A DNA stretch of 62,304 nt, filler included, from Myxococcota bacterium (GTDB lineage Bacteria > Myxococcota_C > UBA6777): NCBI GenBank assembly GCA_023150835.1. It is 3 parts of 3 records of this genome, joined end to end, with 100 filler letters (N's around TTAATTAATTAA, not from the genome) between each part and the next. Parts side by side here need not be neighbours in the genome. Positions count along the whole stretch, not along the records: positions 15,568 to 47,080 come from JAKLKB010000151.1; 2 more parts are not named here. One strand, written 5' to 3'. Made by a program: the position numbers and the translations under genes. Shown piece after piece: positions 15,468 to 47,180 of this stretch. Each line of letters begins with the position of its first letter. Positions within the stretch are counted from its first letter, which is position 1. Under the pieces are notes generated by a model. The model saw only the letters and a program-made list of their open reading frames with translations. It was not told the origin of the DNA and ran no database searches.

Positions 15468-15567
15468 NNNNNNNNNNNNNNNNNNNNNNNNNNNNNNNNN
15501 NNNNNNNNNNNTTAATTAATTAANNNNNNNNNNNNNNNNNNNNNNNNNNNNNNNNNNNNNNNNNNNN
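15468..15567. other. Artificial contig linker
   Basis: N44-TTAATTAATTAA-N44 (stops in all six frames). Confidence 0.98.
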
Positions 15568-17946: not shown

Positions 17947-18073
17947 GACCGCACTTATGGGCAAAGGGGAGCGCTATCAATAGCGCTTTGAAGCCGAACT
18001 ACAAGGATCTTATTACTTTTGGGTTTGTTCGAGTGTGGTAGTGATGGTTTGGTTTGTTGTATGAAAATGTTGG

Positions 18074-18658
18074 TTAAGTGGGGTCGTTGCGTCCATCCCC
18101 ACGAACAAAGTAGCGGAGCAAAACACAACTGAACAGATACCATGCTTTTTGTGTCATGCGTGCTTCAGGAAGCTGCTCTCTCAAAGCGTTTTTGTGGATG
18201 GTTACTGGCATCGTCAGATCTGCTTTGTAGATACCACTTGGTTCCGAACCAGGCCAGGGCGGTAGGTAAAAGCTTTTAAAAGGTTTATATCCTCGAAACT
18301 CATCCAGAGCTTTTTGTGAATTTTCTTTATTTGTCTCTTCTTGTTTGATGATCGGAACGATTTGTGTCCAAGGATTCTTGGATATCTCGCGAGTAAAATC
18401 ACAAGTATTGCCCAGAAGCATCCAACGGTAGATGTTGGGAACCTCTGCCGCGATGATCTCTCCTTCCTCATCAATCAGAGCAATCTCAAGACTCTTGGGG
18501 AGGATTATATCACCTTGACATAGGGTAGGTTGACCATGTTTTGGGGATTCGTAAAAAGATCCAAAAATGCTGCCATCCTCAACCGCTTTGCTAATGCTTG
18601 TATTGAGTTCTTTTGCATCGGTGGGTGGAGGCCAGCGAACAGAGCCTTCTTGAGCCAT
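18074..18658 (-). CDS. Hypothetical protein with QGDI...LLGNTCD motifs (possibly PemK-like fold)
   Basis: TAATG coupling to the upstream gene; AT-rich; fold assignment is inference. Confidence 0.65.
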   Translation of the reverse strand: MAQEGSVRWPPPTDAKELNTSISKAVEDGSIFGSFYESPKHGQPTLCQGDIILPKSLEIALIDEEGEIIAAEVPNIYRWMLLGNTCDFTREISKNPWTQIVPIIKQEETNKENSQKALDEFRGYKPFKSFYLPPWPGSEPSGIYKADLTMPVTIHKNALREQLPEARMTQKAWYLFSCVLLRYFVRGDGRNDPT

Positions 18659-19104
18659 TAGACACTCTTTATCGTTTTTTTCTGGATGATTTTTCTTTTC
18701 TTGATGGGCTTTTCTGTTTGGAAAAGCTCATCAACTAGTTCGTCGGCAGCTTCACTGCCCTCGATTGCGCCAACCATGGCCTGAACCCAAACACCATAGT
18801 CATCAATGCTCAGGTCGCGTTTGGGAAGAAGGTTTGCGTCCAGAACGACAGATAAGATTTTTTTTTGCCGTTTTTTGAGCTTCCCAACGTTCGGAAGTTT
18901 AAGTGAATTAGTCGACTTCATTGCAATTGTTTTTTCTGGGACGATGGAAGTCGTTGTGGTTTGTTCATGGATGGGAGGAACCAAACAAAAAATAATGCAC
19001 CCACTCACGGCTTGAAAAAGCTGTTTATCCAAGGCAAAAGAACTTTTTTGCGTTTCTTTTGAAGAAAGAGAGGATTTGTCGATGGAAAGGGGAAAACTCA
19101 CCAT
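18658..19104 (-). CDS. Hypothetical protein
   Basis: ggag SD; coupled to both neighbours. Confidence 0.6.
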   Translation of the reverse strand: MVSFPLSIDKSSLSSKETQKSSFALDKQLFQAVSGCIIFCLVPPIHEQTTTTSIVPEKTIAMKSTNSLKLPNVGKLKKRQKKILSVVLDANLLPKRDLSIDDYGVWVQAMVGAIEGSEAADELVDELFQTEKPIKKRKIIQKKTIKSV

Positions 19105-19106
19105 TT

Positions 19107-19775
19107 TTAATCTCCCACCATATCTATAGATTTTTTTACCATCTGGATTGTTTCATCTGACACTTTGCTTATCGCAGTTCGGAGCTCTTTTAAGGCTTCG
19201 AACCACAAAGCAGTGGAAAGAAAAAAGCGAAGTATGGGTTTAACTTGCGGGACTTTCCCTTGCACCAAACGCTTCGGATTGAGCATCTCGACATCAAAAA
19301 AATCTAATTGCACAACGTCAATACCATACAGCACGGCTACGAGCGGTGCTTTTTCCTTCCTAGTGGTTTGTGGATCTACGTTTTGAAGTTCTTCGATGTT
19401 CAGCAATCGCACGGAAGGCCATTCAGATCCGTAAGCTCCATCCATATGTTTTCTCAACTCACCGTCCATTCGGGCAAGCGACTCGTTAAACATAAAGAGA
19501 AACCGAAAAGGCATACACATGGTGACCATACCTTGAAGTTTTCTCTTTACGTTAGGTTCGGACGGAAAGAGTTGAGCAAAGTGCAGTTGGTATAAACCAG
19601 CGTTGTGTGACAAACCAAATCCATCGGCCATGTATTGGTGACTCGGGGTCTCTAAGAGATCAAGATCAATACTCAGTCGACCGTCCTTGAGATGAGCTTG
19701 GTGCCTATTGTTTGCCCTTTCGGTTTTTGGCTTGTTTGTTGTCCTTTGGTTTCTAGAGTTCTTGTTCTTGCTCAA
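19107..19775 (-). CDS. Hypothetical protein, possibly tandem DUF3467-like domains
   Basis: TTG start after AAGGTGG; YMADGF..YQLHFAQ and YGID..QLDFF...ILRFFLS patterns. Confidence 0.6.
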   Translation of the reverse strand: MSKNKNSRNQRTTNKPKTERANNRHQAHLKDGRLSIDLDLLETPSHQYMADGFGLSHNAGLYQLHFAQLFPSEPNVKRKLQGMVTMCMPFRFLFMFNESLARMDGELRKHMDGAYGSEWPSVRLLNIEELQNVDPQTTRKEKAPLVAVLYGIDVVQLDFFDVEMLNPKRLVQGKVPQVKPILRFFLSTALWFEALKELRTAISKVSDETIQMVKKSIDMVGD

Positions 19776-20172
19776 AAGGATACCACCTTACGAAAAGCTT
19801 ATCGGTTTGTGCCGTGTGCATCATATCCAACAGACAGATAAAGTCAAGCATGCTCGGCTTCTACTGTAGCCGTAGACGCACAAAACAAATAAAGTTTCAT
19901 CACGCCTCAAAACATGCATACGGCGCATGCATATTTAACTGTATAACAAGCCCGCTCTCTTGTCCATTCCCTCTTCTCAAAACTCCTTTCTCTTTCATGA
20001 TCTCACACCCATGTCAGACGAATAAGTTTATAAACACCAGAGTTAGCTACTTTTTGGTCTTCGGCACTGATTTCCACGTGGGCTTGAATAAGGAGATTGA
20101 TAAAAATCGAGGGTGTGGGTGTGGTGTTTTTAGATGGGGAGGGGTGGGGGTTTAGGGAGGGTGATCGGGAGG

Positions 20173-23100
20173 CTATGCCTTCCACCAGATGTACTCGATG
20201 TTTTTGCGACCCTTGCCGGACTTGCCGATCTTCACGTCGACCTCGATGCCCTTCTCTTTGTATCCCATCCGCTTGGGTGGTCTCATATTCTCGTATCCTG
20301 TGATCATCACGGGGCCACGAACCTTTGAAAGAGCCGTCAACACTTCGTTGTAGTCGTCCATGTTGTAGCATTTTCCGCGCTCTCCGTAGCCAACATGACA
20401 GGCTTCGGGGTACGGCGGATCGACAAACCACGTCACATCCGAACGATCTTTCAAGTCTTCGATCATGTCCAAGGCATCGGCGTAAATGATTGCCTTGCGC
20501 ATCTCCTTTGCGGCTTCCTTGATCACCTGCAATCGGCTTGACAAGAGCTTGTCCGTTGGGAACTGGAACCGCCCAAAGGGATCACGGAAAATGCGATGAT
20601 GTAGGGCTTTTGCGGCCTTGTACTCATCGCCAAGATCAAGCTCTGTTTGCAGATGATCCTCCACCTCAAACAAGAGCATCTGCCGGAAAAGGGTTTCTGG
20701 ATTGCCTTTTTTGAGTCGCTGAAAGACCTCGCGGATCTCGCTGTTTTGTTCGGCAAGGTAGATCTTCTTTGCGCCGTAGTTTCTGGAGACAACGGCAGAT
20801 CCAGCGAATGGCTCCGCAATGTTGTCTGTACCGATCTTTCCCAAGATATCCCGAATGTGCGGCCAAAGCTGGTTCTTTGCTCCGATGTGATAAAACAGCG
20901 GCGTGGGCTTGTCTCCCTTGAAGAGAGCAGGGTTGTCTCTGTATCCAGAGAGCCAGCTTTCAAAGTGTTCTTTGTAGCTTGTTTCGGCAAGCGGAATCGA
21001 CCGAATCGGCATGATGATGTGAATTTCGCCGTTCCCACGCCGCACACAGATCGGCTTGCCGAAGGCCGATGATTTGTTGATCGGGTCTTGGTGATAGAAA
21101 GATATCTGCGAAACTTCGCTCTCATCGCCGCTTTGGAGGGCTTGAAGAAGATAATTTCCGTTGACGTGGATCTCATGCGCTTGATGATCAGAAGACGCAA
21201 GCGCGTCAGAAGAAAAGTACACACGAAAGAAATCGAATCGTCGGGATAATTTTTCGCTGAAGTCTTCGTGGTACGTCGGAGCGAAATAGACTCCCTTGTG
21301 ATCCACTCCAAGCGTAAGAAAATTAAACCGAAATGCGGAAAGCGTTTTCATCATCAAGGCGAGTATTTGTTGCGCCTTAATTGTGTTGAAAACAACCTTT
21401 ATTCGGGGGATTTGTTTGGCTGTATGCTTTTTAACCTTCTCTTCTTTGCCCAATATATCGAGCATTGCGATCAATGAATTGGTGGGGTAATGCGAAGGCA
21501 GTATTTTTCTCTTCTCCACAGAACCATAGCCAAAATCGTCCATGCGTAGTGTTGTGATCTCTCCGTCGTTTGCGTAAGAGGTCGGGATATAGGCGGCGCG
21601 ATGTCCATTTGTGGCGATGGCATAGGAGTTGTGGAAAAGAATGCCAGTAAGATAGCTCCGAAGCTCCGCGTTGTCGTCATCTTCTTGGAGTGCGAACCTA
21701 TCCGCTCGCTGCATCGCCTCAGTGCGGAGCTTGAGATCAGGTGTGATGTGAAGCGCCTTCTTTGGCTTCCCATCAAATTCTGATGCCGTAAATCGCTCCC
21801 AATCGTCCCCAACCACCTGCTTCCAGTCATCCAATGCGCGAAGCTGAAAAATCACAGCGTCCATATCTTCGGACTTTCGCTCCACAAGCTCGCCTTGTCG
21901 ATTGCGAACCACATCCCCTTTTCGATTGCGGATGGTGTAGAAGTCAACCCACTCTCCAGCGTCCTTGTCATCGGGTTCTGGAACCCACTCTTTGCTTTTC
22001 TCGATGGTGTAAAGGGGCTTGTATGTTTCAACGCTTGCGGGAGAGGATTGCGCGTTTTTTGTCGGATGCGCTGGCGTTATCGCTCCGGATGTGGCGACAC
22101 TGCTTTCAGGCTTTTTTTTCGCTGCCACCTGCAAACTGCTTCCAAAGCTGCACCGCTGAACCCAAAACCCCCAGCGCATCGACCGTTGAATCTGCGGCCT
22201 TTGTACCATAGTGGATAGGTTGCCCAAGCTCCTGTGCGATGCGCTCGACATGGTAGAGATAGACCCATGCTGGGAGATTGCCGTGATCGCTCGCGTTCAA
22301 AAGAGGCTCGATCTCTTCGATGGGAAGGCGCAAATTGGCAAGATCTCGTAAGGCCGCTTGTGTCTCCATCTTGTCAGCCCATCCTGAAAACAGCATGGGG
22401 ATAAATGTTCGTGCAAAGTCCATGATCCCAGCTTTGGGGGGAAACCACGACTTGCCAAGTCCCTCAAGAACTCTCAAGTTCTTGAACTCTGCCTTGTGAA
22501 CATCTGTTAAGAGCTTTTTGTAGTACGCAAAGTGATCGCCATCCATGCTTAGGCCAAGCATGCGCTCCTTGCGCTCCATCGCGGCGAGTTGTTGCAGCGC
22601 ATTCAGTGTCGCTCGGTAGTCGCCTCCGCTGCTTACGAGGTTCTCGTATTCACCCGAAGCGATAAGGGCTTTGTTTTCTTCCCACCAAGCGAGGATGTTT
22701 TGGCCCATCCGTAGATACGGGAACAATTCAATAGCCTCTTCTTCGTCACTGTCTTCGATCTCTTCGACATATTCGGACTCTTGGGCTTTTTCTGCGACGT
22801 CTTTCACCGTGGCTTCTGTTTGGCGCAACGAGTTGAGATGTTCCAAGAAACGCTTTGCGATATCTTGCTCTTTTTTGAGTCTGTTGTTTCCAAGCAGCGC
22901 AGATGCCGCAGGGATCGTTTTGGAGAGCAGTTGCTCCGCAAACATACGGGCATCGACTTCGGAGGAGAGCGTGTGCAAACGCAGGCCCGACTCTTGGTGC
23001 ATCACTTCAAACGCTCCATCGGCGTTCTTGTAATAGCTGAGACCTTTCTTTTCGTACCCATGCGTCTCGAATCCACCGTGATTCTCGCCTTCTACATAGG

Positions 23101-24211
23101 TCGCCACGCGAACATGGTTCACCCTCAACCATCCCTCGCTATCGAGTTCTTGCTGGATCTCGCCCACCTCGCTGTTTCCGCCCTTTGTCGCAGCCTTCTT
23201 TGGTGTGGGCACATGGGCCTTTTGGTTTAGCGTCGTGGTCTTCTTTGTCTTCGGAAGGACGGACTTTTCTTCGTCGGGGATCTCTTTGGGATCGGGTGGC
23301 GGAGTGCCTTTTTTCAAACCTTCCTTGCCGTAAGCCGACTTGAACCGCGCAAGCTCTTGCTCTGCTTTTTCGATCTGCGCCTTGATGCCGCGTTTTTTCG
23401 CCTTCGCGAGCTTTTCTTTTCTGCGTTCGATCCCTGCACGAACAAACGCCGCAAGTTCGGCCTTCCAAGACTTTTTGAGTGTTTCCAAAAAAGCCGACCA
23501 TGTGGACGACTTCGGCTTTCCGTCGAATCTGTCGGCGTATTCGACCTGATCGTTTTCCTTGTCGAGTGCTGTGATGGTGTAGTTGCAAGCTGCGCTGTCG
23601 TGGGGGGCGATGCGTACCACATCCCCTACTTGCAAACGCTCGATCCAGTCGGGGTTCATGCGACCATCGCGCACATAAAAATACCGATTGAGGCGTTTCC
23701 GCGCAAAGGACGGACATTCGGGGTTTTCGCGGTATCCGCTGTAGCGCGTCGGAACCCACACCTCGCGCCCACCCAACAGAATAGCACCCTCTGCGATGCG
23801 AAAGGATGTCTTGTGGTCAACGTAGTGCCATCCGAGATCATCGAATGGGGCATAGCTGACACGGCGAAAGCCCATCCGCTCAATGATCTCCCGCGCATAA
23901 TCGGCATGTTCGACGACTGTGGGAGGATCATGCGAACACAGATAAGCGTGGACGTTGCGTTGGTTCTCAGCCATCGCTCGCTTTTTTCCAGCCTGTTCAA
24001 CGCGAGGAAAGACCACGCCATTGAAGATCACCGCTTGATCTGCCGAAAGATGCTCGATCACCTTGCCCTTGAAACGCAAAGACCAGCCGCCTGTATGCAG
24101 ATTGCGATAGAGGCAATACGCAGCGCCTTTTTTGGCAGGTTTTCCCGAAGATTCTTGTTCTTCAAACCAGCGATCCACGGGGTTGTTTTTGTCGTTTGCA
24201 CCGTCGTACAT
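20173..24211 (-). CDS. Polyvalent protein (~1345 aa if the A8 frameshift at 22112-22119 is corrected): YRNLH phage domain, beta-clamp-like domain, Dam-like DNA adenine methyltransferase
   Basis: ORF 24211-22106 and ORF 22251-20173 join by removing one A. Motifs: YRNLH..WS..RNVHA; RSYLTGILF..ATNGHR..NYLLQAL..IIMPIR; YHIGAK..EPFAGS..FVDPPY. Confidence 0.7.
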
Positions 24212-24221
24212 GGTCTTTTCC

Positions 24222-27200
24222 TCACGAATAAAGGGCTTCTTCGAGATCTTCTTTGTATTTTTCGGTGGAGAGGATGCCGCGTGGGACTTTTCGAGCAAAC
24301 CAAAAGTCCGCAGCGTCTTGGAGGTCGGTGTGGCTGAGTGATTTGTCCAAGAGGCCCTGCTCGGCCATCTGCAAAAACGCACGCCATCCGTCGAGATGGA
24401 ACGCCAAGACCCGTCCGTCTCTGATCCCTTCTTGTTTGGCGATCACGAGCTTGCCTTGTTTCACCACAGGAACACGTTGGCCGCGACTGTAATATCCAGC
24501 CGTACCTGCGAGTGCTTCCGTGATCTTGGCCCCCAGCCGCTCCCATACGCGGCGCATGAACTGATCGGAGGCATACTGCCAAGAAAAAGAGGAGCTTGCG
24601 ATGCCTTCTGAGAGCCTCCAGTCCCAACCGCCGAGAGCTTCTAGCCCTCTCAGCGCCCCTTCAAGATCCGCATCAAAGTCCCAAGAAGCATGGAGGTTTT
24701 CTGGCTTCAACATGCTGATCGCAGCGTCTTTCGCTTCGTATGCTACAAAATCGTAGGCTCCGTAGCGTCGAACGCCGACCTTTTCCCCTCGAACGCGCCC
24801 AAATTCCGCATAATCCTTGCGGTCGCTGTAGGCGCTCTTGACGCCCACACGGAGACCTTCGTAGAGAACCACCCCGGCGTCTCCCACCAAAATCTCTTTT
24901 TCCCGAACATTGACAGCCCATGGATAGAACGGCCATGCCTGCGGGTCGAGTTCGCTCAACTCCTCCAATAGCTCCTCACCTTCTGCGCGGAGTTGTGCGG
25001 CGATCTCGCCCGTCTTGTACTCTGCCCTGCGGAAACGAGCGTTGGCCTTGTAAAGCGTTCTTCTTGCATGTTCGGCAATTTTTGCGCGGCGCTCGGCCTC
25101 GGCCTTTTCCTTGAGCGCATCAAGCATTTGGCGGGTTCGCTCCGGGTCGCGTGAGATCATCAGCAGGATCTCGTCGGGGCCAAGGTTCATCTGTGCGCCG
25201 GGGTTGTTGGTGTCGCGGTCTTGGGACTTGATCAAGTTCACCATCCAGCCGCGTTTGCCTTGGATCAGGTTGAAGCGCATCCCGTCTTGGCTGCGTTTGG
25301 CGAAGTAGTAGTTGATGGCGATGGCATCGAGCGTGTTGCCTTGGCGTACCCCACGTCCGTTGCGTTGTTGGAGCGTTGCAGGCTCCCAAGGCAGGTCGAT
25401 GTGGTGGATCTCACAGGTTCGGCGCTGTAGGTCGATACCTTCGTAGGCAACGGCGTTTGCCACCACGACATCGTATATTGGGGCCGTCTCGTCGCTTCCA
25501 TTGAACTCTAGAGCGATGCGTTGACGATCTGCTGTGTTCTTCGCAACGACGGCATTGAGAACGGCGATGCGCTTTTCTGGGACGCCGTGTTTCACAAGGG
25601 TTTGCACGATCCAACGATGGGCTGCGACGTTATCGCAAAACACGATATGACCGCAGTGTTGCGCTGCATTGACTCGTTTGGCCATCGCCTTAAACTTCGG
25701 AGAGATGGGGTCAACATCGGCACTGGCCGCCGTTTTCCAGTCGTAGCCCTCGTCGAGATCGGAGTGAATCGACACCAGCGCCATCCTTGCGAGTAGTCCA
25801 AGGATTTGTGCCTTATCCCGCATGTCCGTGCTTTTGAGCGAATCCTCGATCTCTTCGACGTAGCCTGCGTATTTTCGCTCCTGCGCCTGATCCATGTCCA
25901 CCTCGATCACATTGACCGTAGGTTCTGGCAACACAAGTCCCACATCTTCAGCCGTTTTGAAGTCTGCGTAGCGGAAGATCACTTCTCGCAGCTCATGGAG
26001 GTTCTTAAAGCCGACCACCGCAGACTTTGAGGTGATCTGCATATCGGTTCCGATCACTTGCTTGAGTTCGATCTTCAAGTAGCGGTCGATGAATTGCTCA
26101 GGATCGTAGATGCCCATACGCTCCCAAACCTTGGGATCGATCATCTGGAGCAAGCTGTAAAACTCCAAGGGGCTGTTTTTTGCGGGTGTTGCGGAGAGTA
26201 GAACGATCCCCGTCCCGCCTGTTTTTTTGACGAACAGCGTTGCAACGGAAGTCCATCTGCCAAGCGCGGTTCGAGCCTTCGCCAGCGTTGCCCATGAAAC
26301 GAGGAACCCCACCTTCGCGTGCTTCGGGCATATAGAGGTTCTTAAAGTTTTGCGCCTCATCGACCACGAGCATATCCACGCCGATATCGTCCCACGCGAT
26401 TCCGGGGTCGTACTCCCACGCTTCGGGGATCTCCATCTTTTCCGCGATCCAAGCTGCAACGCCTTCTTTGAGCAGGGCTTCTTGGCGCTCTGTGATATCG
26501 CCCTTGCCTCGATCTCGTTTCTTGGCGTTTCTCTGCCTCAGCTTGATCTCGCGCTTGATCGCCTCGACGCCATCGGCATATTCGCGCAGGGTATCTTCAT
26601 TCATGCGCGTTCGTGCGAGCGCGGAGTAGGTGAGGATCACCACGTCATACTCACCCGCTTGAAAGCGCGTCCACTTTTCAGCCCGATCTTTCGGCGTATC
26701 CGTCTCGCTTGTCACTTGGCCTTTTTTGTCCCCCACCTTCAATCGTTTCATCTTGGAGCCGATCACTGCGACCCGATAGTCGGGAAGGACGCGCTTGATG
26801 TCCGCTGCCCACTTCCATGCAATCGAGTTGGGAACGACGATCACAGGGCGTCTGCACCAGCCTTCTTGACGCGCCCTTGCGATCACGGCGATCCCTGTGT
26901 AGGTCTTGCCCACGCCTACATCGAAAGCCAACATCCCGCCTCGGTTTGTGAGAACGCGCCTTGCCCCCGCAGATTGGTGAGGATGGAGCTTGATATCGCC
27001 CTTTGTCCAACGAGCGATCTGGATGGGTTCGTTGCCGTAGTTTGGCTCCACATAGCCCTTGAAGAGGCGGTTGTAGGTGCGCTCGATCTGAGCCTTTCGT
27101 TCTTCGGAGGCTGTGATCCAAGAACGGAACGATTGTTCCCATGTTTTCGCCTGCTCAAGTCGCTTTTCGTCAAGATCGTCGTTCTTTTTCTTCTTGAGCT

Positions 27201-29811
27201 TGAAGTTGCTCATATCATGGTTAATCCACCCCAATATCGGGCGAATGGAGTCATAGATATACGAGCCTTTGAGGTGGGTGTCGTCGAGGTTGTCGTAGTC
27301 GATTTGTTCGTGATCGAGCGTGACGATGCCGTCTTTGCGTATCAGCGTGTTGATTTGTCTTGAGCCGTAGATCGTGACCGTTTCGTTGATCCACTGCGTG
27401 ACCAACTCCAAGGGAACCCAACCCTGACGCGGGGAAATGTCTTCGATATCCTCAAACACGGATGGATTGATGGCTTTGAGAAGGCGCTGTTCTTGGAATT
27501 CAAGTTGGCTTTGGAGAGCTTTGTCGTTCTTGTCATCCTTCATCTTGGCGCGTAGTGCGTCATATTTGAGCCACAGATCGCCGCTGAGGTAGTCTTGTTC
27601 GGGGTAGAGATGAGTGCCATCGATGCACCATCCACCTTTGAACAACTCAGCCAAGCCCGTCTTTTTGAGATACGAAAGCGCGACTTGCTGATCCACCCGT
27701 GTTTGTTGGCTCCAAGCCTCGGCGATCTGGTTCAAAGAAAGCTCTTTGTTGGCCCTGTACGCCCACTCTGCTACCGCGAGGATGTCGCCTGCTTTCCCGG
27801 TGAATCGAGGTGTCCACACAGGCTTGTTCTTGATGCCCTCGATCACGTCGCCTGTTCTCGTAAATGCCGAGAGAAAGCGTTGTACCGCCGTGTTGTCTTT
27901 CTTGATCAGGGCGTTCAGCCCTTTGTGGACGTGAGGGTTTCCATACGAGCGAACCCACGCTTGCAAAGAGGCCGACAGTTCGGGCCACAACTGGACGTGT
28001 TCGTCGCTTTCTTGGGAGGAGAGAGCGGCAAGGTAGCGATCCACCCGCGCACCAAGCTGGACGGCCAGTGCTTCCGCTTGTGAGAGACCGTCTGTATCGG
28101 TGCTGATGCTTCTCGTCACACCCGAAACAAGGGCGTTGGCTTTCTTCTTGGGCTTTGTTTTGGGGCGTAGGGAGTCTGCCAAAGCCTCCTCTGCCTCGAA
28201 CGAGCGGACGTAGTGGGCTGCTTCCACATACGTCCCTTTGGGCATCTCGCGCTCGACAAGTTCGGGCAATCGGTCAAACTCACCCACAACCTGATAGCCC
28301 CATCGAGGCTTCTTGGTTTGGTCGTCTTCTCCGCCATCTTTGCCAACTTCGATACCAAGGATGTGTTGTGGGTAAAGCTCGAAGTAGCGGCCCTCAAGGA
28401 TCTCTTTGTCGGTCTCATGCACTTCTGTGAGTTCAACGCCACGCGCACGGAAAAACAACAGATCCGTGACCAGTTCCGCCCCCGGAAAGATCCCCGAAGG
28501 CAGGCGATACGCGGCGGAAAGATGGTGTCGTTTGAGGATGGTTTCTCTGAGCGTGATCGCTGGCTTTCCTTGGCCCGTCATAAACCCGCTGGGGATCAGA
28601 AATACGCCCATCCCTTCGGGGGCCAAGAGATCAAGACCACGGCGCAGAAAGTAGGCATAGGCGCGTTTCTCTCGGTATTCTCGATTGGGATCTTCTGTGA
28701 TCGATGCACCACGCGGCCCGTAGGGAGGGTTGGACAAGACCAATCCGATCTTGCCGTAGAATTTGTCTTCGCTTGCACGAACCCACCGCTCGAACGGCCC
28801 TTCAAAGACGTGTAGATCGGGACGCATCGCTTGGAGCATCCGCGCAGACAACGCCGACCACTCGACCACTTGCCAGTCCAAAGACGAAAAGCCTTCTCCA
28901 CTGGCGGCTTGCACAAAGCGCCCGATGCCTGCGGAGGGTTCGAGCACAACAACCTTCTCATTCACCTTGGGAAGTTGATGGATGTAGGGACGGATCACAC
29001 GCGCCACTTCGCGCACGATCTTTGTGGGGGTGTAGTATTCGTGGATCAATCCGCGTTCTTCGGGTATGGGGAACCCTTCGGGAAACTTGTCAGCATACTT
29101 CTTCATCGAAAGACCACCCCAGCCCGAATACTGCGAGAGGATCACAAAGTCCTCTTGGGTCATCTCTTGCGGAGATTTTGTGGCCGCAAGTCGCATCGCG
29201 GCGAGGTTGGCTGCTTCACGCTCTTTGGCTCCCCAAAGGTCGGGGGAGTCGGTCGAAACCTCAAAGCCCCTCTCGATACGTTCTCCACGCCGCTCTTGTT
29301 GAACCTCGAAGGTTGTCGCCTTCGCTGTGGTGCTTGTCGATGCTTTGGAGAGCGACGCTTTGGGCTTCTTGGCCGCTTCTTTGATCTCGAAGGTTCCCTC
29401 GGTGCGGTCGCCTTCCTCTTGTTGCTCTCTGTATGCAAGTAGCTCTTTGGCAAATTGTTCGGCAGCTTCTTGGCTCTTGAATAGAAAGCCGTGTTCTTTC
29501 TTGTACCAACCGTAGGTCGCACGAGCCTTTTCAAGCCACCACTGGAAAGCATCACCCAACGGACGTGGTTGACGCACCACCCACGCCTTGATCTGTTGCC
29601 CCTTGGCGGTGGTGTATTCGATTTGTGCAAGTCTCCCCCGTCTCTGCGAAGGTAGAGCTTTTGGGGTAGCCTTTTGGGAGCTTCCCTTGGTCGGGCTGGC
29701 CTTGGCCTTTGCTTGGGAGGGTTTTGCGTTGGACGGAGCCTTGAGCCCTGTTTCGCTGAAAAGGTCAAGGTCTTCCAGTCCTTTGAAAAGATCCAGTTTG
29801 TCGAGATCCAT
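24222..29811 (-). CDS. DarB-like giant N6-adenine methyltransferase plus SF2/SNF2 helicase (~1860 aa; frameshift at A7 run 26222-26228)
   Basis: YSGWGG, EYYTP, LEPSAGIGRF, SNPPY; FDVGVGKT, VVDEAQNFKN, then in the next frame LLSATPAKNSPLE, EGIDLQ, PWEPATLQQRNGRGVRQGN. Confidence 0.88.
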
Positions 29812-29846: not shown

Positions 29847-30431
29847 TTACGCAGCTTCCGTCAGTTGCTTGGGTTCGTTCGCAGGGGTGAGTTCCTTGGC
29901 CTTGGCTTGTTGGCGTATCTTCCAAAGCCACGTGGCGACCGATGCAGCCACAGCACCCGCAACAGAGGCTCCGACGTATTTGGCCAACTGTACCCAGCGC
30001 GAAGGTTCTTCTTTCGGCGGATCGGCCAAGGTTTCGAGAAGATTGAAGAGGGTACACAGATCGACGGTGAGAGATTCATCGCCCGAAACATGCGCGGTAC
30101 GTTGTTCAAAGAAGATGGCGATCAAGCGGTTCTGCTCGGCTTGTCGCTCTTTGGCTTTCTCGCTGGGGCGTTGGCACTGTTGGAGGTGTAACAGTCGGGT
30201 GTGCGTAGGGAGTCCTGCGCTCCGAGCGATCTGGTTGAGCTGCGCTTGGAAGTCGATCATATCGGATTCAAGGCCGCGTCGGACTTCGTAGCTTCGTGCA
30301 AAAGCGTCCTCAAACACGGGTCGCGCATCGGCGGCTTGTTGAAGAACCAGCAAAGCAGCCATGTGACGGTTGATGAAGCGTTGTTCTTGTTCGAGAAGTT
30401 GTTGGATATGGTGTTGCAATGCTGCGGACAT
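29847..30431 (-). CDS. Helical protein with C-terminal TM anchor
   Basis: TAATG coupling; YVGASVAGAVAASVATWLW followed by KIR. Confidence 0.7.
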   Translation of the reverse strand: MSAALQHHIQQLLEQEQRFINRHMAALLVLQQAADARPVFEDAFARSYEVRRGLESDMIDFQAQLNQIARSAGLPTHTRLLHLQQCQRPSEKAKERQAEQNRLIAIFFEQRTAHVSGDESLTVDLCTLFNLLETLADPPKEEPSRWVQLAKYVGASVAGAVAASVATWLWKIRQQAKAKELTPANEPKQLTEAA

Positions 30432-31475
30432 TAGCGGCGTCCTTTCGTGGTCGCGGGGAGTCGGGCGGGTTCGACGTTGACGTTGACGGTAGGACGGCGA
30501 AGTGCAAAGCGAAGAATGCCCCAGATCAAGGCAGCGACGACAAGCGAAACGCCCGTATAAAGCGCGATTTTCTTGATCTGATCGATGGCAGTGTTCGCGG
30601 TGTTTTTCAGGTCTTGACTGAGCTTGTTCGGATCGATCCCCGCTCCTTTGAGGCCATTCTGCAACGCCGATAAAAGGGATTTTCCGGCCTCTTCGGTGAT
30701 CTTTGTGATCCCCTGTCCAGTCGAGTGCGACAAGCGCCCGATGATTCCGGGGTCTTTGCTTTCGATCTGCTTCCACTCTTCATCGGTGACGCCAAGCGCA
30801 AGGCCCATCCATGCCTGATCGAAGGCGTGGGCTGTCCCCCATAGGCGTTAGGTTAAGCGCTTGTTGGCCCCCCCACCCCAGCCCTCCCCCGTGAACAGGG
30901 GAGGGAGCGAAAGTCGGAAGCAGCGGGGATTTTGTTTTTTCATGACACACGCTGTATGCACGACGCGCAGACGCTTTTCCACCTTAACAAGGCGCGTATG
31001 GGGCTGTCCCCCACAGATTGCTCCAAAATCCGCGATAGGTTTTACGCCAATCTTGGATCGACACGTCGACATTGATGTTGTTCATCCACGAGATATCGTC
31101 TGGCTCCCCGTCCCCGTCGTAGTCGGTGGTTTCAGACTTTGCGAGTTCGCGTAAGAGTCGTTGAAGCGAACCACCCCAACCCAACAAAAAGCGTTGTAAG
31201 AAAAGGGCTTTTTTGTAGGGAATCTCGACGTAAGCAGTGCTTTCCTTGGTGCCTTCTTTCGCTTCGGGCAGAAACTTGAGAAACACTTCGGCGCGCTCGT
31301 CGATGTCTCCGCGACTTCGCAGCGCCTTGATCACTTCGCGCAGCGCGTTGATGTCGCCTTTCGCGGTGACAAGGTAGTAGGGTTTGCCAAGCGAGCGATC
31401 AGCCTCTTCGTTGCGAAGATCTCCGACAAAATCGAAGAGAATGCCTTTTTGTTGGACGGCGTTGGTGGCGGTCAT
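30431..31475 (-). pseudogene. 290-aa C-terminally anchored protein split by a MITE insertion
   Basis: Removing 172 bp between the direct repeats at 30829-30841 and 31001-31013 restores GFWSNLWGTAHAFDQAWMGLALG in frame; TM IALYTGVSLVVAALIWGIL. Confidence 0.85.
30838..31002. mobile_element. MITE family A, complete 165-bp copy with a 7-bp target duplication
   Basis: Imperfect TIRs CCCATAGGCGTTAGGTTAAG / CCCATACGCGCCTTGTTAAG; gctgtcc at 30831-30837 and 31003-31009; internal GC hairpin ccctcccc..ggggaggg. Confidence 0.85.
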
Positions 31476-31786
31476 GGCGTTTCCTTGGTGAAGAAAGGTT
31501 TGATCAAGGCCCAAAGGATAGCGGCGATGGTTCCGCCGATGGCGAGGTAGTCCACGTTGCGCTGAGAGAGAGGCTGGATGATGTCGAAGTAGCGCACGAT
31601 CATTCCGCGCACTTCGCCGCTGGTTTCGACGAAATGGGCGTCTGTTGGTAGATGGACTTCCAGTTCGTCCCAATGCACAAAGGGCGCACTCTCCCAACGC
31701 GAAGAGACCGTCACGCGGGGTTTATTGCGTCGGCTGGAGTACACCAACCAGCGGCGCGTCGGAGGTTCATACGCCGAGTACAACAT
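31472..31786 (-). CDS. 104-aa protein with C-terminal TM anchor (MLYSAYEP...LPTDAHFV...RGMIV)
   Basis: TGATG and ATGA overlaps with both neighbours; YLAIGGTIAAILWALIK. Confidence 0.7.
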   Translation of the reverse strand: MLYSAYEPPTRRWLVYSSRRNKPRVTVSSRWESAPFVHWDELEVHLPTDAHFVETSGEVRGMIVRYFDIIQPLSQRNVDYLAIGGTIAAILWALIKPFFTKETP

Positions 31787-32397
31787 CACGCGGCCTTTGC
31801 TGCTTGTTGGCGTTTGTAGAGATACACGCCGAGGGCGGTTGCGAGGGTTGTGGCGACGGCCCCTGCGAGATACTTGCCCCAATGCCGTTGAAAATGACTG
31901 CTGCTTGTGGTGCGGATAGCCTTTTTCTTGGCGGCAGATTGGGCGGCTGCGAACTTGGCTGCGTTGGCTTGGGCGGCAAGTTGCGCTTGGCGCTGGAGAG
32001 CCGCTGCTTCTGTGGTACTTTTGGCTTGGGCGATCTTGAGCACGAGTTCTTGTTGCTGCCGTTGGGCATCGGCTTGGAGCGCCGCAACTCCGACTTTGGC
32101 CCCACCCGTAAAGAGAGCATCCAACCCCTTGGACAAGGCATCTGCCCAATCTGCGCCGCTTTCTTCATCGCTGTCATCATCATCCCCAGCGAGAGAACCC
32201 TCTGCACAACGGCAAAGGTAATTCACGCGCCGTTGGTTGGAGTAACCCATCTCAGATGCATAAGATTTTGCCATCTGAAGCAGCTCAAGGGTCTTGGGGG
32301 ATTCGAGGGGCATCTGAGAGATATGCTGCAAGGCCACAGCGCGAACATGTTCGCTTGGATAGGCCAAGGCTTGCTCAATGGTGTGAATGGCTCGCAC
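31786..32397 (-). CDS. Ala/Gln-rich coiled-coil protein with C-terminal TM anchor
   Basis: GTG start with aagga SD; YLAGAVATTLATALGVYLYKR. Confidence 0.7.
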   Translation of the reverse strand: MRAIHTIEQALAYPSEHVRAVALQHISQMPLESPKTLELLQMAKSYASEMGYSNQRRVNYLCRCAEGSLAGDDDDSDEESGADWADALSKGLDALFTGGAKVGVAALQADAQRQQQELVLKIAQAKSTTEAAALQRQAQLAAQANAAKFAAAQSAAKKKAIRTTSSSHFQRHWGKYLAGAVATTLATALGVYLYKRQQAAKAA

Positions 32398-32992
32398 GGC
32401 GAGTTCCTTTCTTTTTCTTCATTTGCTTTGCGGGGAGGCGTCGGAAGGGGTCGATGATGAGGGCGACGTGGATGCGCTTGCACATCTCTTTGGCTCGCTT
32501 GCCAAGACTTGGATCGACGGCAACCCATCGCCCATGATGGCCGTCGATGGCGGGTTGATAGGCTTGTGCAAAGACGTGTTGATAGCGAGGTCGCCCGTTG
32601 GTCTTTTCGGGAGGTTGGTAGCCAGCAAGCACAAGGTAGGATTGGACGCCCAAGGCCCACAACATCGCAAGTGTGAGGCTCGCAAAGCTGTCGCAGTCTT
32701 CGAGAACGGACTCACCCGCAAGCAAACGGGTGTAGATCCGCTCAGGACTGTAGTGTAGCTCAATGCCCTTGGGGTCGCGGATGTAGGTGACTTTCTCCGA
32801 AACAAAGGCATGGACGGCAGCGATCCGTGAACGCACTGAGTGTCCCAAGTCCTCATGTTCGGGAATGGCTTGCTCCACAAGCAATCGACACTCGTTGACG
32901 TATGCCAAGTTGTGTTGGAACCGCAGCGCAGATGCCGCGATCCGTAGACCTGTTTGGATGGGGTTGACCCGCTCGACGCGCTCTACTTCCAT
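32375..32992 (-). CDS. Transglutaminase-like (papain-fold) Cys-His-Asp enzyme
   Basis: VTYIRDP, EDCDSFA (Cys), YQHVF (His), WVAVDPS (Asp); SD aggaga. Confidence 0.85.
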   Translation of the reverse strand: MEVERVERVNPIQTGLRIAASALRFQHNLAYVNECRLLVEQAIPEHEDLGHSVRSRIAAVHAFVSEKVTYIRDPKGIELHYSPERIYTRLLAGESVLEDCDSFASLTLAMLWALGVQSYLVLAGYQPPEKTNGRPRYQHVFAQAYQPAIDGHHGRWVAVDPSLGKRAKEMCKRIHVALIIDPFRRLPAKQMKKKKGTRRASHSHH

Positions 32993-33232
32993 ACTCTCCT
33001 CCTGAGTGGAGGCCGCGTATGATAGGGGGGAGCGTTCGAGGTTTGTGGAGCGGATCGAGTGAACAAAGAAGCGGCGCTTTTCGTGAGGCACCTGAAGAAC
33101 GGCTTTGGTAGCATTAAGCGTTCTACACAGAACGAACTCTCAGCGACCATCGCTGTACAAATTTCTCAGCGTTAGTATCGTCTTTTCGGAGACAAGCCGC
33201 AGATGAGACCAAAGACAAAAAGGATTCCTTGC

Positions 33233-33426: not shown

Positions 33427-33562
33427 TACGAGCGTTCTGCGTGATGGATTTCTTTCATTTTACACTGATGTCTCTTTTCTTTTACACAATGGACACTTTT
33501 TATGCTAAATATCCAACGATACTTTCGCAAAGATAAATTTCTACTTCTTGCAAGGAGTTCGA

Positions 33563-42500: not shown

Positions 42501-42846
42501 AACACTTTCCCCACCTCTTCCAACACAAGGAGCTCTTGTTGAAACGCGTCTCCCTCTTGGTTGCTTTTCGTGACAAGGAAGCTGGCCAGCTGGGGAGTTC
42601 TCTCTTTACGTTGCGTCTGGCCCGTACTGCGGAAGGAAATGGACAGTCGATCGCTCTGACCCAAACCAGTGGTCTGGCTGGACTCCCGGTGCTCTTGCAA
42701 CACAAGAGACATGGAGATTGTGGGCTGACACCAACGCTCTGTCCTCGTTGCCGAGTTCCTTCCTCACCGCAGAAGGGCAACTCAAACCCGAAGTGGTCGA
42801 AGATATCATCCTTTTGCTTCACTACCAGATCGACACCACAAATTAA
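33563..42846 (+). CDS. Tc toxin complex subunit A-like protein (~3100 aa; frameshift near 42685)
   Basis: CxCxxCxSxxSPAAYFTDLL, RRPDLGEIELSC, YRLWEANRKVFLYPENWIEPELR, YNWELFFHAP, DERYLPFEGAG; the conserved tail VEDIILLLHY lies in another frame ending at 42846. Confidence 0.9.
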
Positions 42847-42930
42847 AAGGCCGAAATCCTAGAAAAAGACTTGCTCTGTCGAGAAGAAAGCCTAGCTTTC
42901 AGAGACTTTTCTCACAAAGGATTCGTGTGG

Positions 42931-45900: not shown

Positions 45901-47080
45901 ACAGGTCGGGTGGTATCGCTTGGGGATTCCGCAAGCCTCACGAAGCTACGAAGTGACGGGGCTGAGTATACAACAGTGGACTCCAGCGACCCTTTTGCAG
46001 CAGCTTCAAGCCGCATCGACTCTTTCGTATGAGCAGACCCCCACGCATGGACTTGTGCAAAAACGATTGTTGAGCCGCACACGTGCATTGTACGCCAAAG
46101 ACGATCAGACAGGGCCTTTGGCAGAGGGACAAGTCGAGTCTCTAGCGCTTCCCTACGAAAGTTACGAGCAGATCTTCACTTCGGGTTTGTTGCAAGAGGT
46201 GTTTGACAGCAAGGTCGATGCGACTCTCCTACAAGCTGCGGGCTATCAGTGGTTTGATGGGGTATGGTGGGCTGCTTCGGGTCGTGCGGTCTTGGACGCC
46301 CAACACTTTTATCATCCCATCCAAGAGATCGATGCTTTGGGCCATACCACGACCCTAAGCCATGACAGCGAACACCTATTCCCGACCCAGATCGTCGATG
46401 CCTTGGGCAATACCACCAGCGCCCAGATCAATTATCGCGTTCTTCAACCGTGGGAAGTCACTGATCCAAACGGCAATCGTACCCAAGTCGCCTTTGATGC
46501 ACTCGGCATGACCGTGGCATCCGCTGTGATGGGCAAGAGCAGCGAGACGCTGGGTGATACCTTGGTGGGTGTAGAACCTGATCTGGACCCCACGACGCTT
46601 GCAGCTTTTCTGAGCGATCCCAAGCTCCATAGTGCGACCTTGCTGGGGCAGGCCACGACACGTTTTGTGTACGATGTCACGCGCTATTACCTGAGTGGTC
46701 TGCCCAATGTGACCGCCCAGATCGAACGCGAAACACACGTCTCTGAGTTGGGGCAAGGGGAAACTTCACGCTTGTTCCATAGCTTTGTGTATGCCGATGG
46801 TTCGGGGGGAGAACTGATGAAAAAAGCCCAAGCGGAGGCAGGGATGGCTCCCAAGCGCGATGCCAACGGGGACTTGGTCTTCGATGGCGAAGGTGAGTTG
46901 GTCATGGAGCAGGCCTCCTCGCGTTGGGTGGGGTCTGGGGCGACGATCTACGACAACAAAGGCAACCCGCTGAAAAAGTACGAGCCTTTCTTTAGCAGCA
47001 CGCATGACTTTGAACCTGAAGAAGAACTCCGTCATTGGGGCGTGACGTCGCTGATGGTGTACGATGCGCTTGGACGGGCC
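42931..47080 (+). CDS. Tc toxin subunit B-like (SpvB N-terminus, FG-GAP propeller, RHS/YD repeats); frameshift near 45410; truncated by the gap
   Basis: LPKGGGAIRGI, YDSGAGNGPFGLGW, RAGFEIRT, FRGFGRVEQWD; second frame RALKGGVLRQEVY, DPNGNR, NKGNPLKKYEPFF, YDALGR. Confidence 0.9.
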
Positions 47081-47180
47081 NNNNNNNNNNNNNNNNNNNN
47101 NNNNNNNNNNNNNNNNNNNNNNNNTTAATTAATTAANNNNNNNNNNNNNNNNNNNNNNNNNNNNNNNNNNNNNNNNNNNN
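47081..47180. other. Artificial contig linker
   Basis: N44-TTAATTAATTAA-N44. Confidence 0.98.

Follow-up and report, generated by a model that had tools for sequence, protein, structure and literature searches.

Polyvalent proteins, as set out in the main text of their survey (Iyer, Burroughs, Anand, de Souza and Aravind, 2017; PMC5512222), carry at least two functionally unrelated domains on one polypeptide, and a gene position in the virion head block is assigned there to members that are packaged and injected (Iyer et al., 2017). A related arrangement, the DarB dyad, joins an EcoKI/TaqI-like methylase to a following SWI2/SNF2 ATPase within one protein. Here, we describe a chain of this general build that is encoded in the window, by which we mean the whole stretch of DNA analysed (62,304 nucleotides from a Myxococcota bacterium, assembly GCA_023150835.1). 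Its open reading frame lies, together with its upstream neighbours, on a 31.5-kb contig (JAKLKB010000151.1, positions 15,568-47,080) and combines two unrelated domains, a shortened fragment of the beta sliding clamp DnaN and an adenine methylase, an effector that it has in common with the polyvalent proteins of the survey's main text. A DarB-like methylase-SNF2 gene is located directly upstream, and a phage relative of the clamp fragment shares with polyvalent proteins an LPD25 domain and a location in the head-gene block. However, the methylase of the window belongs to the D12/Dam class rather than to the EcoKI/TaqI-like class of the DarB dyad, and, unlike in elements with polyvalent proteins, no delivery apparatus is seen among the ORFs scanned on its contig. 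Compared with other D12-class enzymes (Dam, DpnM), it is distinguished by the clamp fragment at its N-terminal side; compared with DNMT1 and PCNA, the arrangement would, in the most far-reaching reading given below, be reversed, with the methylase bearing the pocket instead of the peptide. No printed description of such a clamp fragment was found among the papers listed by full-text literature searches or in the main text of PMC5512222; the terms 'clamp', 'DnaN' and 'PCNA' each occur 0 times in that main text, although its supplements may include the domain under a different designation.

The original prediction had placed the fusion at 20173-21720. The feature lies on the minus strand (Table 1), and its open frame extends further upstream, to position 22251, with the GTG codon at 22128-22126 as the likely start of the gene. 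All motifs quoted at the time are found in the minus-strand translation of 20173-22251, with RSYLTG starting at residue 198, IMPIR at 413, LFYHIGAK at 452, EPFAGS at 480 and DPPY at 611, and the range then given for the clamp, 21001-21720, was nearly exact.

Table 1. Features of the clamp-methylase locus and its upstream neighbours (positions refer to the window).
Feature	Position	Strand	Detail
Whole open frame (P0001)	20173..22251	minus	692 aa from longest ATG
Gene-call version of the frame (P0002)		minus	651 aa; GTG start 22128-22126
WHEP-TRS helix-turn-helix repeat-like stretch	21796..21927	minus	~45 residues (109-152)
Shortened beta-clamp (DnaN-like) module	21001..21759	minus	residues ~165-417
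Linker from clamp module to methyltransferase	20899..21000	minus	34 residues (418-451)
D12/Dam-class N6-adenine DNA methyltransferase domain	20176..20898	minus	residues 452-692
Stop codon of clamp-methylase ORF	20173-20175	minus
Poly-A tract	22112..22119	minus	A8 in gene sense; two codons past GTG start
Upstream ORF with Phage_L5_gp82 domain	22106..24382	minus	758 aa
DarB-like adenine methylase-SNF2 helicase, N-terminal piece	26098..29811	minus	1237 aa; PF02384, PF07669, PF00176; phrog_11801, phrog_10089
Same DarB-like protein, C-terminal piece	24222..26459	minus	745 aa; SNF2 + Helicase_C (PF00271)
Second homopolymer	26222..26228	minus	A7 in gene sense; A6 in X4, X6

The relationship of the N-terminal part to DnaN emerges from profile comparisons. 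Single-sequence scans of the whole ORF against Pfam and NCBIfam gave no DnaN family at E <= 1, and the PHROGs collection gave a weak match to phrog_6615, annotated 'DNA polymerase' (E 0.0059). With a profile built from three family members, the seven best matches in the PDB were all beta sliding clamps, led by 6d46_A (E 4.5e-7), whose residues 150-388, reaching to the end of the chain, align with profile positions 16-219. A four-member profile recovered beta clamps as 27 of 28 sequences at E <= 0.01, and hhalign against a DnaN of the same phylum returned a probability of 96.9% (E 1.5e-10), albeit over 51 C-terminal columns only. The DnaN resemblance noted originally is thus more than chance, and the analysis supports the N-terminal part as a true, remote DnaN homologue spanning the region of the client-binding cleft. 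The homology covers residues ~125-366 of E. coli DnaN (1MMI/2POL; PF00712, PF02767, PF02768) at an overall identity of 21%, with the clamp module, in contrast to DnaN, sitting inside a larger multi-domain protein. The module lies below every Pfam threshold, including the gathering thresholds of the DnaN families, and PF02768 is matched by only one of the four family members (E 0.015). A normal dnaN gene of the host genome adjoins recF on another contig.

Structure prediction points in the same direction. An AF2 model obtained without any DnaN row in the alignment was of low confidence (pLDDT 49), and sliding clamps made up all eight Foldseek matches to it at E <= 0.001. Inclusion of DnaN rows raised the values to pLDDT 69 and pTM 0.69, with the clamp fold partly built in because 36 of the 40 alignment rows were DnaN. 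In a wide VIA-align search with this second model, viral processivity factors and clamps occupied ranks 1-39. The top match, 7ybd_A, aligned over 199 residues (model 5-259, chain 122-364) at Z 11.6 and an rmsd of 4.7 A, and the first unrelated row followed at Z 5.3. The two models thus agree on a predicted clamp fold for the region in which it had been anticipated. In size and fold, the module is also similar to two-domain clamps such as the trimeric T4 gp45 (187 residues aligned at Z 11.2 and an rmsd of 3.8 A) and PCNAs (Z 8-9). In contrast to these two-domain clamps (T4 gp45, PCNA, 9-1-1), however, its sequence homology is specific to DnaN domains II-III, and one of its two domains is incomplete.

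Relatives of the clamp fragment are few. Apart from the window lineage, the family comprises P0003, a protein from a Myxococcales metagenome-assembled genome, P0009, a short fragment, and the phage protein L013; the methylase is attached in the window lineage only, the other three carrying the clamp fragment without it. In P0003, the part homologous to the upstream 758-aa ORF runs unbroken into the clamp module, and both P0003 and P0009 end directly after the IMPV motif, paralleling the end of DnaN after MPMRL. P0009 looks stand-alone, but its start may be an artefact, because its contig measures only 1,320 nt. The phage protein, which has 1,772 aa and the Pfam domain LPD25, is encoded between portal and MuF-like genes on one side and protease and major head genes on the other. 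An exhaustive phmmer search returned eight proteins at E <= 0.001, among which the clamp part has genuine relatives only in P0003 and P0009; four proteins with WHEP-TRS repeats and a TPR protein matched query residues 21-96 only and were set aside. Word-indexed protein searches retrieved only the query itself among 2,941 candidates, only P0009 among 4,400 and, in 'longer' mode, only P0003 and the query among 8,000. None of 235 pattern matches of the family profile in genome contigs was confirmed, tblastn with the clamp part gave no match in plasmid and phage collections, and the sequence is absent from the ESM Atlas. Viral contigs yielded four hits to the family profile, all from one phage lineage and identical in the clamp region. 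Among six genomes of the order and phylum, a single one (G001) shows a trace, consisting of the final 26 residues, which lie at the edge of a contig and are followed by a stop, with no methylase.

The module combines domain III with a domain II whose first half is present and whose second half is reduced, and it contains the pocket motifs RxxL, TxGHR, N..Y and IMPxR. With the 18 E. coli client-pocket positions (subsites I and II) given in PMC11139829, the window protein is identical to E. coli at 13 of the 18, including R152, L155, T172, H175, R176, P242, N320, Y323, M362, P363 and R365, compared with 29 of 183 other aligned positions. The remaining pocket positions show three conservative changes and two differences (A at 177, G at 344), and 10 of the 18 are invariant across all four family members; the alignment is uncertain at positions 246-247, which adjoin a 25-residue insertion that follows the FP motif and distinguishes the module from DnaN. 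Across 37 DnaN sequences, 31 columns reach a conservation of 80% or more; of these, the fragment retains 8/10 in the pocket, as defined by the same list, but 4/21 elsewhere, although part of this apparent conservation follows from the double role of pocket columns as alignment anchors for remote homologues. The comparison, made at the level of sequence, supports a selective retention of the cleft residues, in line with the partner-binding cleft originally proposed. The idea that domains II-III are present holds for domain III, which is complete, but not for domain II, whose second half lacks ~23-30 residues: E. coli residues 188-200 and 217-233 face gaps (188-200 and 223-232 in all four family members). 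Profile and structural alignments begin at DnaN residue ~120-150, which places the onset of the module at about E. coli residue 125-140, the 164 residues preceding the module gave no clamp match, and a hidden domain I further upstream was rejected after phmmer searches of the PDB with P0003 (residues 1-790) and the 758-aa ORF had likewise produced no clamp match. The DnaN layout of domains I, II and III in one chain is therefore not seen here, and the absence of domain I together with the partial deletion of domain II would make the usual dimeric ring impossible. Of the E. coli dimer-interface positions in domain III that could be mapped (272, 273, 298 and 304), one matches.

The C-terminal half is readily classified. 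It exceeds the Pfam cut-off for PF02086 (39.9 bits against 22), matches phrog_56 over residues 451-688 (E 1.6e-14) and shows motif I (EPFAGS) ahead of motif IV (DPPY), the order typical of the D12 class, bearing out the Dam-type N6-adenine methyltransferase of the original prediction. Its best solved relative is DpnM (2dpm_A). Its score for TIGR00571 lies below the NCBIfam cut-off (42.2 bits against 114.85), so that it does not qualify as a Dam equivalog. The cluster ORFs scanned yielded no restriction partner. A search of the cluster's own proteins for a clamp-binding motif gave one match in 5,115 residues, QMLLF at 524-528, which was rejected as a lead because a rough estimate predicts ~2-3 chance matches. 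The same segment is aligned with a helical region of DpnM.

The fusion of the two parts is real and recurs in two independent assemblies. The linker contains neither an in-frame stop nor an ATG, and in contig L010, which differs from the window at 25 of 1212 nt, a single open frame crosses the junction with a linker that is identical bar one replacement. The pN/pS ratio between the two copies is 0.22 overall (clamp part 0.21, methylase 0.27), values that derive from small counts (14 synonymous and 11 non-synonymous changes). A 2,422-nt contig from run X6 spans 20138-22556 and preserves the same frame, its sole indel being a change in the poly-A tract. The joint reading frame thus persists in other assemblies.

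Homopolymers that vary in length are typical of phase-variable modification genes (phasevarions). Similarly, the frame of the methylase gene is shifted here by a coding homopolymer whose length differs between populations. The tract, which lies just before the TGA (22108-22106) of the upstream ORF, is A8 in the window and in X3 and X9, A9 in X4 and A10 in X6, as read from contig consensus sequences of low depth (3-14) rather than from reads. By computation of the frames, A8 corresponds to a 758-aa and a 651-aa protein, A9 to a clamp-methylase frame that lacks its start, and A7 or A10 to a fusion of the upstream ORF with the clamp-methylase ORF, of 1402 or 1403 aa, respectively. In the second homopolymer, A6 yields a single DarB-like ORF of 1862 aa. 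All three indel rows found over 12 kb in four runs fall in these two homopolymers, with parts of 18000-20000 having little or no cover in the runs compared. A coding homopolymer of variable length that resets the frame, as in contingency loci, is thus present across five populations. Judging from these frames, the clamp-methylase gene probably represents the C-terminal portion of a longer protein, from which it has been detached at the poly-A tract. In contrast to a phasevarion, in which a gene is simply turned on or off, tract length would set the architecture of the product, with separate proteins at A8, no start at A9 and a protein of ~1,400 aa, as in P0003, at A7 or A10, and the tract may switch reversibly between these states.

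The surroundings are consistent with a setting in which incoming DNA matters, as the original prediction had assumed. The DarB-like pieces overlap in different frames, and their PHROG matches are collinear, with E values of 1.2e-50 and 3.9e-21 for phrog_10089 ('DarB-like antirestriction') and 1e-94 and 9e-77 for phrog_11801. Together, they show the order of the DarB dyad, methylase before ATPase; no LPD family, LPD36 included, was detected in the 1237-aa piece at E <= 0.01. The 758-aa ORF is 52% identical to P0003 over 681 residues; it has no match in plasmids, and in phages only its L5_gp82 domain was matched, in one mycobacteriophage (two accessions). In the A7 or A10 state, this L5_gp82-domain part would be added to the clamp-methylase chain as a further domain. 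No virion, T4SS, integrase or relaxase genes were found among the ORFs scanned on the 31.5-kb contig, so that the case for a mobile element is built on three observations, namely the DarB-like neighbour, the phage relative and a dip in G+C. The cluster is likely a mobile, counter-restriction gene cluster.

Given these data, we see about an even chance that the ORF is a counter-restriction module of polyvalent type from a mobile element, with a clamp fragment that would dock clamp-binding proteins of the host. The orphan methylase half would pre-emptively methylate the element's DNA, and the protein may be delivered together with that DNA. The fragment retains the hydrophobic pocket that receives the clamp-binding motif of polymerases, of the delta subunit of the clamp loader and of repair proteins, and could serve as a docking adaptor that captures such proteins, either to bring the attached methylase to the site where the element's DNA is copied or to keep the captured proteins from reaching the host clamp. 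A predicted complex with residues 1-140 of the host's own delta subunit lends weak support to such binding (score 0.60; best of three controls 0.00), although the pass may reflect memorisation by the predictor, because the structure of a comparable complex of beta and delta has already been solved. At least 79% of contacts are shared between the runs, with a partner pLDDT of at least 73; the mark was reached by 58 of the 80 solved complexes, compared with 2 of the 110 mismatched pairs, but at scores of 0.60 or below only by 7 of those 80 and by both mismatches.

Other functions of the fragment have to be weighed against docking. It could act as a DNA-holding accessory, binding DNA or closing part of the way around it, either singly or as a PCNA-like oligomer built from two-domain units, and so keep the methylase on incoming DNA for many sites per encounter. 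The DNA-clamp fold, the T4 gp45 alignment, which is as good as that with DnaN, and the methylase fused immediately behind the fragment would suit this role. However, the shortened domain II leaves six equal ring domains unavailable, conserved DnaN columns outside the pocket are mostly lost, the dimer interface is poorly matched, and the module is buried in chains of 1,000-1,800 residues in P0003 and the phage protein. Considering also that three of the four family lineages lack a methylase, we regard such a role as unlikely, and the processivity aid for methylation, put forward as an alternative at the outset, is weakened by the same absence of methylases, the missing domain I and the cut in domain II. 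A clamp poison is more doubtful still. In that case, domain III of the fragment would pair with domain I of host DnaN, or the fragment would titrate the clamp loader, blocking host clamp loading in the course of a host takeover, with the methylase as an unrelated passenger. Phages are known to target the clamp, 7evp (Gp168 with beta clamp) is among the structural matches, and both the complete domain III and the kept pocket, which delta uses, as well as the weakly supported delta prediction, subject to the caveats given above, are compatible with this idea; yet E. coli interface positions 272/273 are T/L here and vary within the family, and a chronic replication poison on the chromosome would be costly.

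The state of the locus raises the further question of whether the protein is still made; RNA-labelled runs contain little of this stretch. The split tract in three of the five populations (window, X3, X9) and the insertion in X4, an IS-like element within the clamp region (21469-21475) that accompanies A9, could reflect decay rather than switching. The ORF would then be the remnant of a dead phage or conjugative element, with the homopolymers as inactivating frameshifts, and both the DarB-like gene and a TcB-like gene indeed occur in two overlapping frames in the window, on a contig on which no mobility genes were found. Against this stand the low pN/pS across clamp, linker and methylase, small as the counts are, and the state of X6, in which both genes are in frame and A10 equals the in-frame A7 plus three, as reversible slippage gives; moreover, A8 is still predicted to yield a 651-aa product from the GTG two codons before the tract. 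Overall, decay appears rather improbable to us. Least probable, and only slightly credible, is a host defence locus, either DISARM-like or of another restriction-modification type, that would comprise the two methylases and the SNF2 helicase and use the clamp fragment to sense foreign replication. PADLOC DrmD models match the SNF2 piece, at best with E 2.5e-22, models for methylases of Types I and II match both methylases, and the variable homopolymers would fit modification genes. However, the PHROG matches, DarB-like and phrog_11801, surpass these by a wide margin (E 1e-50 to 1e-94) and run collinear with a single protein of phage type, the ten cluster ORFs scanned include no nuclease, DrmB or DrmC, and the sole distant relative with a readable context sits in a phage head module.

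If the docking of host proteins by a counter-restriction module is the correct reading, its most far-reaching form would be a portable 'client pocket' on mobile-element effectors that ride on clamp-binding proteins of the host. A Dam-type methylase would then be placed at the fork copying the incoming element and would methylate each restriction site once it becomes double-stranded, with a three-state poly-A switch (fused 1,403-aa, split or off) tuning the form of the protein; taken as a whole, this scenario is a rather long shot. The module, at ~250 residues, is small and its pocket residues are identifiable, so that the hypothesis is directly testable. It is known that mobile elements gain access to the host replisome via short clamp-binding peptides, and a clamp pocket carried by the element itself would, if confirmed, represent the mirror strategy. 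The clamp module would add to the domain repertoire known from polyvalent proteins, and the poly-A tract is a possible example of a homopolymer that switches protein architecture, beyond turning a gene on or off. Should the proposed function hold true, the fragment would define a new class of host-factor capture modules in injected or transferred counter-defence proteins.

The clamp-methylase gene is a single open reading frame, encoding 692 residues from the longest ATG and 651 residues in the gene call P0002, which starts at the GTG at 22128-22126 in the same frame. All sequence motifs quoted in the original prediction are present, namely RSYLTG (residue 198), IMPIR (413), LFYHIGAK (452), EPFAGS (480) and DPPY (611). 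Its assignment of the C-terminal half to the Dam-type methyltransferases is confirmed by a match of residues ~452-692 to MethyltransfD12 (PF02086) above the family threshold (E 5.2e-10; 39.9 bits versus 22), and the PHROG family phrog_56 ('DNA methyltransferase') matches residues 451-688 (E 1.6e-14). This half also matches several PADLOC models for type II and orphan methylases, and its best solved relative is DpnM. Its score against TIGR00571, the Dam subfamily, is far under the cut-off (42.2 versus 114.85), so that GATC cannot be assumed to be its target. PADLOC nuclease models gave no match in a scan of ten ORFs of the cluster. Residues 109-152 (21796-21927, minus strand) resemble eukaryote-type WHEP-TRS repeats: four WHEP-repeat proteins match this region with whole-library E-values of 8e-7 to 7e-5, with 36% identity over 45 residues in pairwise BLASTP, and the protein has no match to the Pfam model for WHEP-TRS at E <= 1.

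The predicted fusion is real, as an independent metagenome contig (L010) carries clamp part, linker and methylase end in a single open frame, with 25 differences from the window in 1,212 nt and the same linker. The fusion, which lies beside a DarB-like gene, is under purifying selection, with a pN/pS between the two copies of 0.22 overall (14 synonymous, 11 non-synonymous), 0.21 for the clamp and 0.27 for the methylase. A 2,422-nt contig from a sequencing run of another study (X6) spans 20138-22556 with 35 substitutions and, as its sole indel, a change in a poly-A tract. Runs containing the stretch come from nine studies of sludge and wastewater. The fusion is specific to this lineage: in G001, a genome from this genus, the clamp part is represented by its last 26 residues, after which come a stop codon and unrelated genes; P0003 and P0009 terminate after the clamp part, and the phage relative lacks a methylase.

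The relationship of the N-terminal module to DnaN is remote. With the single sequence, no DnaN family in Pfam or NCBIfam is matched at E <= 1, and when phmmer was run exhaustively against 1.84 billion representatives, only P0003 and P0009 emerged as true relatives of the clamp part. Both stop a few residues past an IMPV motif, much as the DnaN of the source genome stops after IMPMRL. The seven best PDB matches of a three-sequence profile are beta sliding clamps (best E 4.5e-7, profile positions 16-219 against chain residues 150-388); once the phage member is added, beta clamps make up 27 of the 28 PDB sequences at E <= 0.01. An hhalign comparison with the DnaN proteins of six genomes of the phylum gave 96.9% probability in an alignment confined to the last 51 columns, and BLASTP against the source genome's DnaN aligns two segments, RxYLxG...ATxGHR (E 2e-4) and the C-terminus (E 0.019). 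The predicted clamp fold also held up in structure models. With only the three family sequences as input, the model is of low quality (pLDDT 49), yet all eight of its Foldseek matches at E <= 0.001 are sliding clamps. A second model (pLDDT 69, pTM 0.69) is partly circular, as 36 of the 40 rows in its alignment are DnaN fragments; when searched independently of Foldseek, it returned clamps or viral processivity factors at each of ranks 1-39. Alignments with DnaN chains cover ~200 residues (model 5-259, DnaN ~120-366) at Z 11.6 to 9.4, T4 gp45 reaches Z 11.2, and the first unrelated chain Z 5.3.

The clamp fragment is probably unable to form the canonical ring, and its client pocket is conserved. 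The module starts where domain II of DnaN starts; domain I is missing, and no clamp match was found in the preceding 164 residues, the upstream ORF or the first ~790 residues of P0003. With E. coli DnaN added to the alignment for numbering, all four family members have gaps opposite residues 188-200 and 223-232; in the window protein they fall at 188-200 and 217-233, and a 25-residue insertion follows the FP motif. The module thus consists of domain III preceded by a domain II whose first half is present and whose second half is reduced, so that the original assignment to domains II-III stands for the first half of II and for III, and only in part for the rest of II. Using the 18 residues of pocket subsites I and II as named in the text of a 2024 review (PMC11139829), we found identity with E. 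coli at 13 of the 18 positions, as against 29 of 183 other aligned positions, and invariance across the four members at ten. As a control for general conservation, we considered the 31 columns at least 80% conserved among 37 DnaN sequences: the window protein retains 8/10 pocket versus 4/21 non-pocket columns, and the other three members 7-8/10 versus 8/21, although pocket columns also anchor the remote alignment and positions 246-247 are uncertainly aligned. This preferential retention indicates that the pocket is what selection has held on to.

Features of the clamp-methylase locus, its relatives and its surroundings
Feature	Position	Strand	Remarks
Clamp-methylase ORF	20173-22251	-
Upstream ORF	22106-24382	-	758 aa; Phage_L5_gp82 domain
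A8 run	22112-22119	-	in overlap of the two frames; two codons past downstream GTG, just before upstream TGA
Same run, A8 (window, X3, X9)	22112-22119	-	two ORFs, 758 aa and 651 aa
Same run, A9 (X4)	22112-22119	-	upstream ORF 768 aa; downstream frame without start at GTG
Same run, A10 (X6)	22112-22119	-	single ORF, 1,403 aa
Same run, A7 (not observed)	22112-22119	-	single ORF, 1,402 aa (computed)
A7 run	26222-26228	-	overlap region of pieces 26098-29811 and 24222-26459
TcA-like ORF		+	3,104 aa; TcA_TcB_BD, ABC_toxin_N, neuraminidase-like, VRP1
SpvB/TcdB-midN ORF	42871-45420	+	overlaps TcdB-midC/RHS ORF in another frame
TcdB-midC/RHS ORF	45098 to contig end	+
N spacers between joined contigs	15468-15567 and 47081-47180
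P0003, relative of clamp part	146-kb contig, Myxococcales MAG		1,011 aa
P0009, relative of clamp part	1.3-kb contig		279 aa
Phage polyvalent protein gene	L013 7265-12583	+

The window being a concatenation of three contigs, the contig that bears the gene covers only 15568-47080 (31.5 kb); the source genome comprises 7.56 Mb in 239 contigs and is 93% complete. The pieces at 26098-29811 and 24222-26459, further upstream, have methylase domains (N6_Mtase and Eco57I) as well as SNF2 and Helicase_C. Both match phrog_10089, 'DarB-like antirestriction' (E 1.2e-50 and 3.9e-21), and phrog_11801 (E 1e-94 and 9e-77), the latter at profile positions 526-1100, then 1339-1559. They contain the methylase-helicase dyad that Iyer et al. 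(2017; PMC5512222) describe as a core of polyvalent proteins in phages and conjugative elements. Relatives of the clamp fragment form part of long proteins with several domains, and one of these proteins is encoded in a phage head module. This sole distant relative with context is 1,772 aa long, is encoded on four IMG/VR contigs from a single phage lineage, and carries the fragment in mid-chain (phrog_947, 'DNA polymerase processivity factor', 815-959, E 4.4e-8) together with an AAA+-like stretch and Pfam LPD25, and its gene sits between portal/MuF-like and head protease/major head genes. A basic motif of ~30 residues (FSDL..KPTKY..RKRGK.GR..YTYAE) occurs both before and after its clamp fragment, and the protein ends, at its C-terminus, in a shortened copy.

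No genes for virions, transfer or integration were found on the 31.5-kb contig. Its G+C content is 0.43-0.50 across 16-22 kb, compared with ~0.55 around. Downstream of the methylase lie three small ORFs (18074-19775, minus strand; 194, 148 and 222 aa; G+C 0.43, several T7-T9 runs) that match neither Pfam nor PADLOC families and hit PHROGs of unknown function only weakly. Upstream of the DarB-like gene, 29847-33091 (minus strand) holds ORFs of 309 and 237 aa without family and a transglutaminase-core ORF (cysteine-protease fold), all possibly part of the same element. Next come Tc-toxin-like genes on the opposite strand (33548-47080); the frame overlap in the B-like gene makes it look split in this assembly. 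In the right-hand contig (48-62 kb), the GC skew is strongly positive (0.25-0.37).

P0003 aligns collinearly with the upstream ORF, at 52% identity over 681 residues, and then runs continuously into its clamp part. In the window, the frames meet at a poly-A tract whose length differs between populations, as read from low-depth contig consensus sequences (see table). The tract at 26222-26228 reads A6 in X4 and X6, giving a single 1,862-aa ORF; over 12 kb in four runs, indels form three rows, all in these two homopolymers. In X4, two contigs diverge at 21469-21475, inside the clamp-coding region, where they overlap by 7 bp; the loose ends form mutual inverted repeats over ~25 nt on a contig of higher depth (17.7), which looks like an insertion sequence in that population. 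At 20326 in X3, X4 and X9, a contig with the last ~51 methylase codons continues rightwards into sequence unlike the window. A second allele occurs at 20278 in these runs and at 20203-20236 in X3 and X9. Both observations suggest that the gene's 3' end also exists in a second context or as a recombinant copy.

The fragment could help the methylase hold DNA, as the original prediction allowed, a role that we consider improbable given that three of the four lineages lack a methylase and that a ring would need domains which the fragment does not have. In favour of a decaying remnant are the split states and the putative insertion sequence; the low pN/pS and the in-frame X6 copy argue against this reading, which we regard as slightly less probable still. 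A poison of the clamp or clamp loader is quite unlikely. A host defence locus appears the least likely: PADLOC models for DrmD and ZorD match the helicase with a best E of 2.5e-22, more weakly than PHROGs do, and scanning the cluster ORFs with PADLOC detected no further DISARM or Zorya parts.

There is about an even chance that the fragment is a docking adaptor for proteins with clamp-binding motifs. One complex prediction, in which the fragment was paired with residues 1-140 of the delta subunit encoded in this genome, lends this weak support (0.60 versus 0.00 for the best control), although such passes are more often wrong than right unless the pairing was likely beforehand, and the score may stem from memorisation of the solved beta-delta complex. 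Polyvalent proteins are already known, as are DarB and Dam methylases; a truncated clamp that keeps its client pocket was not found described as a polyvalent-protein module in the literature searched, and the main text of Iyer et al. contains none of the terms 'clamp', 'DnaN' or 'PCNA', although its supplements could use another domain name. As a docking adaptor, the fragment would bind proteins with clamp-binding motifs and may thereby bring the attached effector to the machinery copying the element's DNA; alternatively, docked proteins might be withheld from the host clamp. The methylase, in turn, would shield the element's DNA from restriction.
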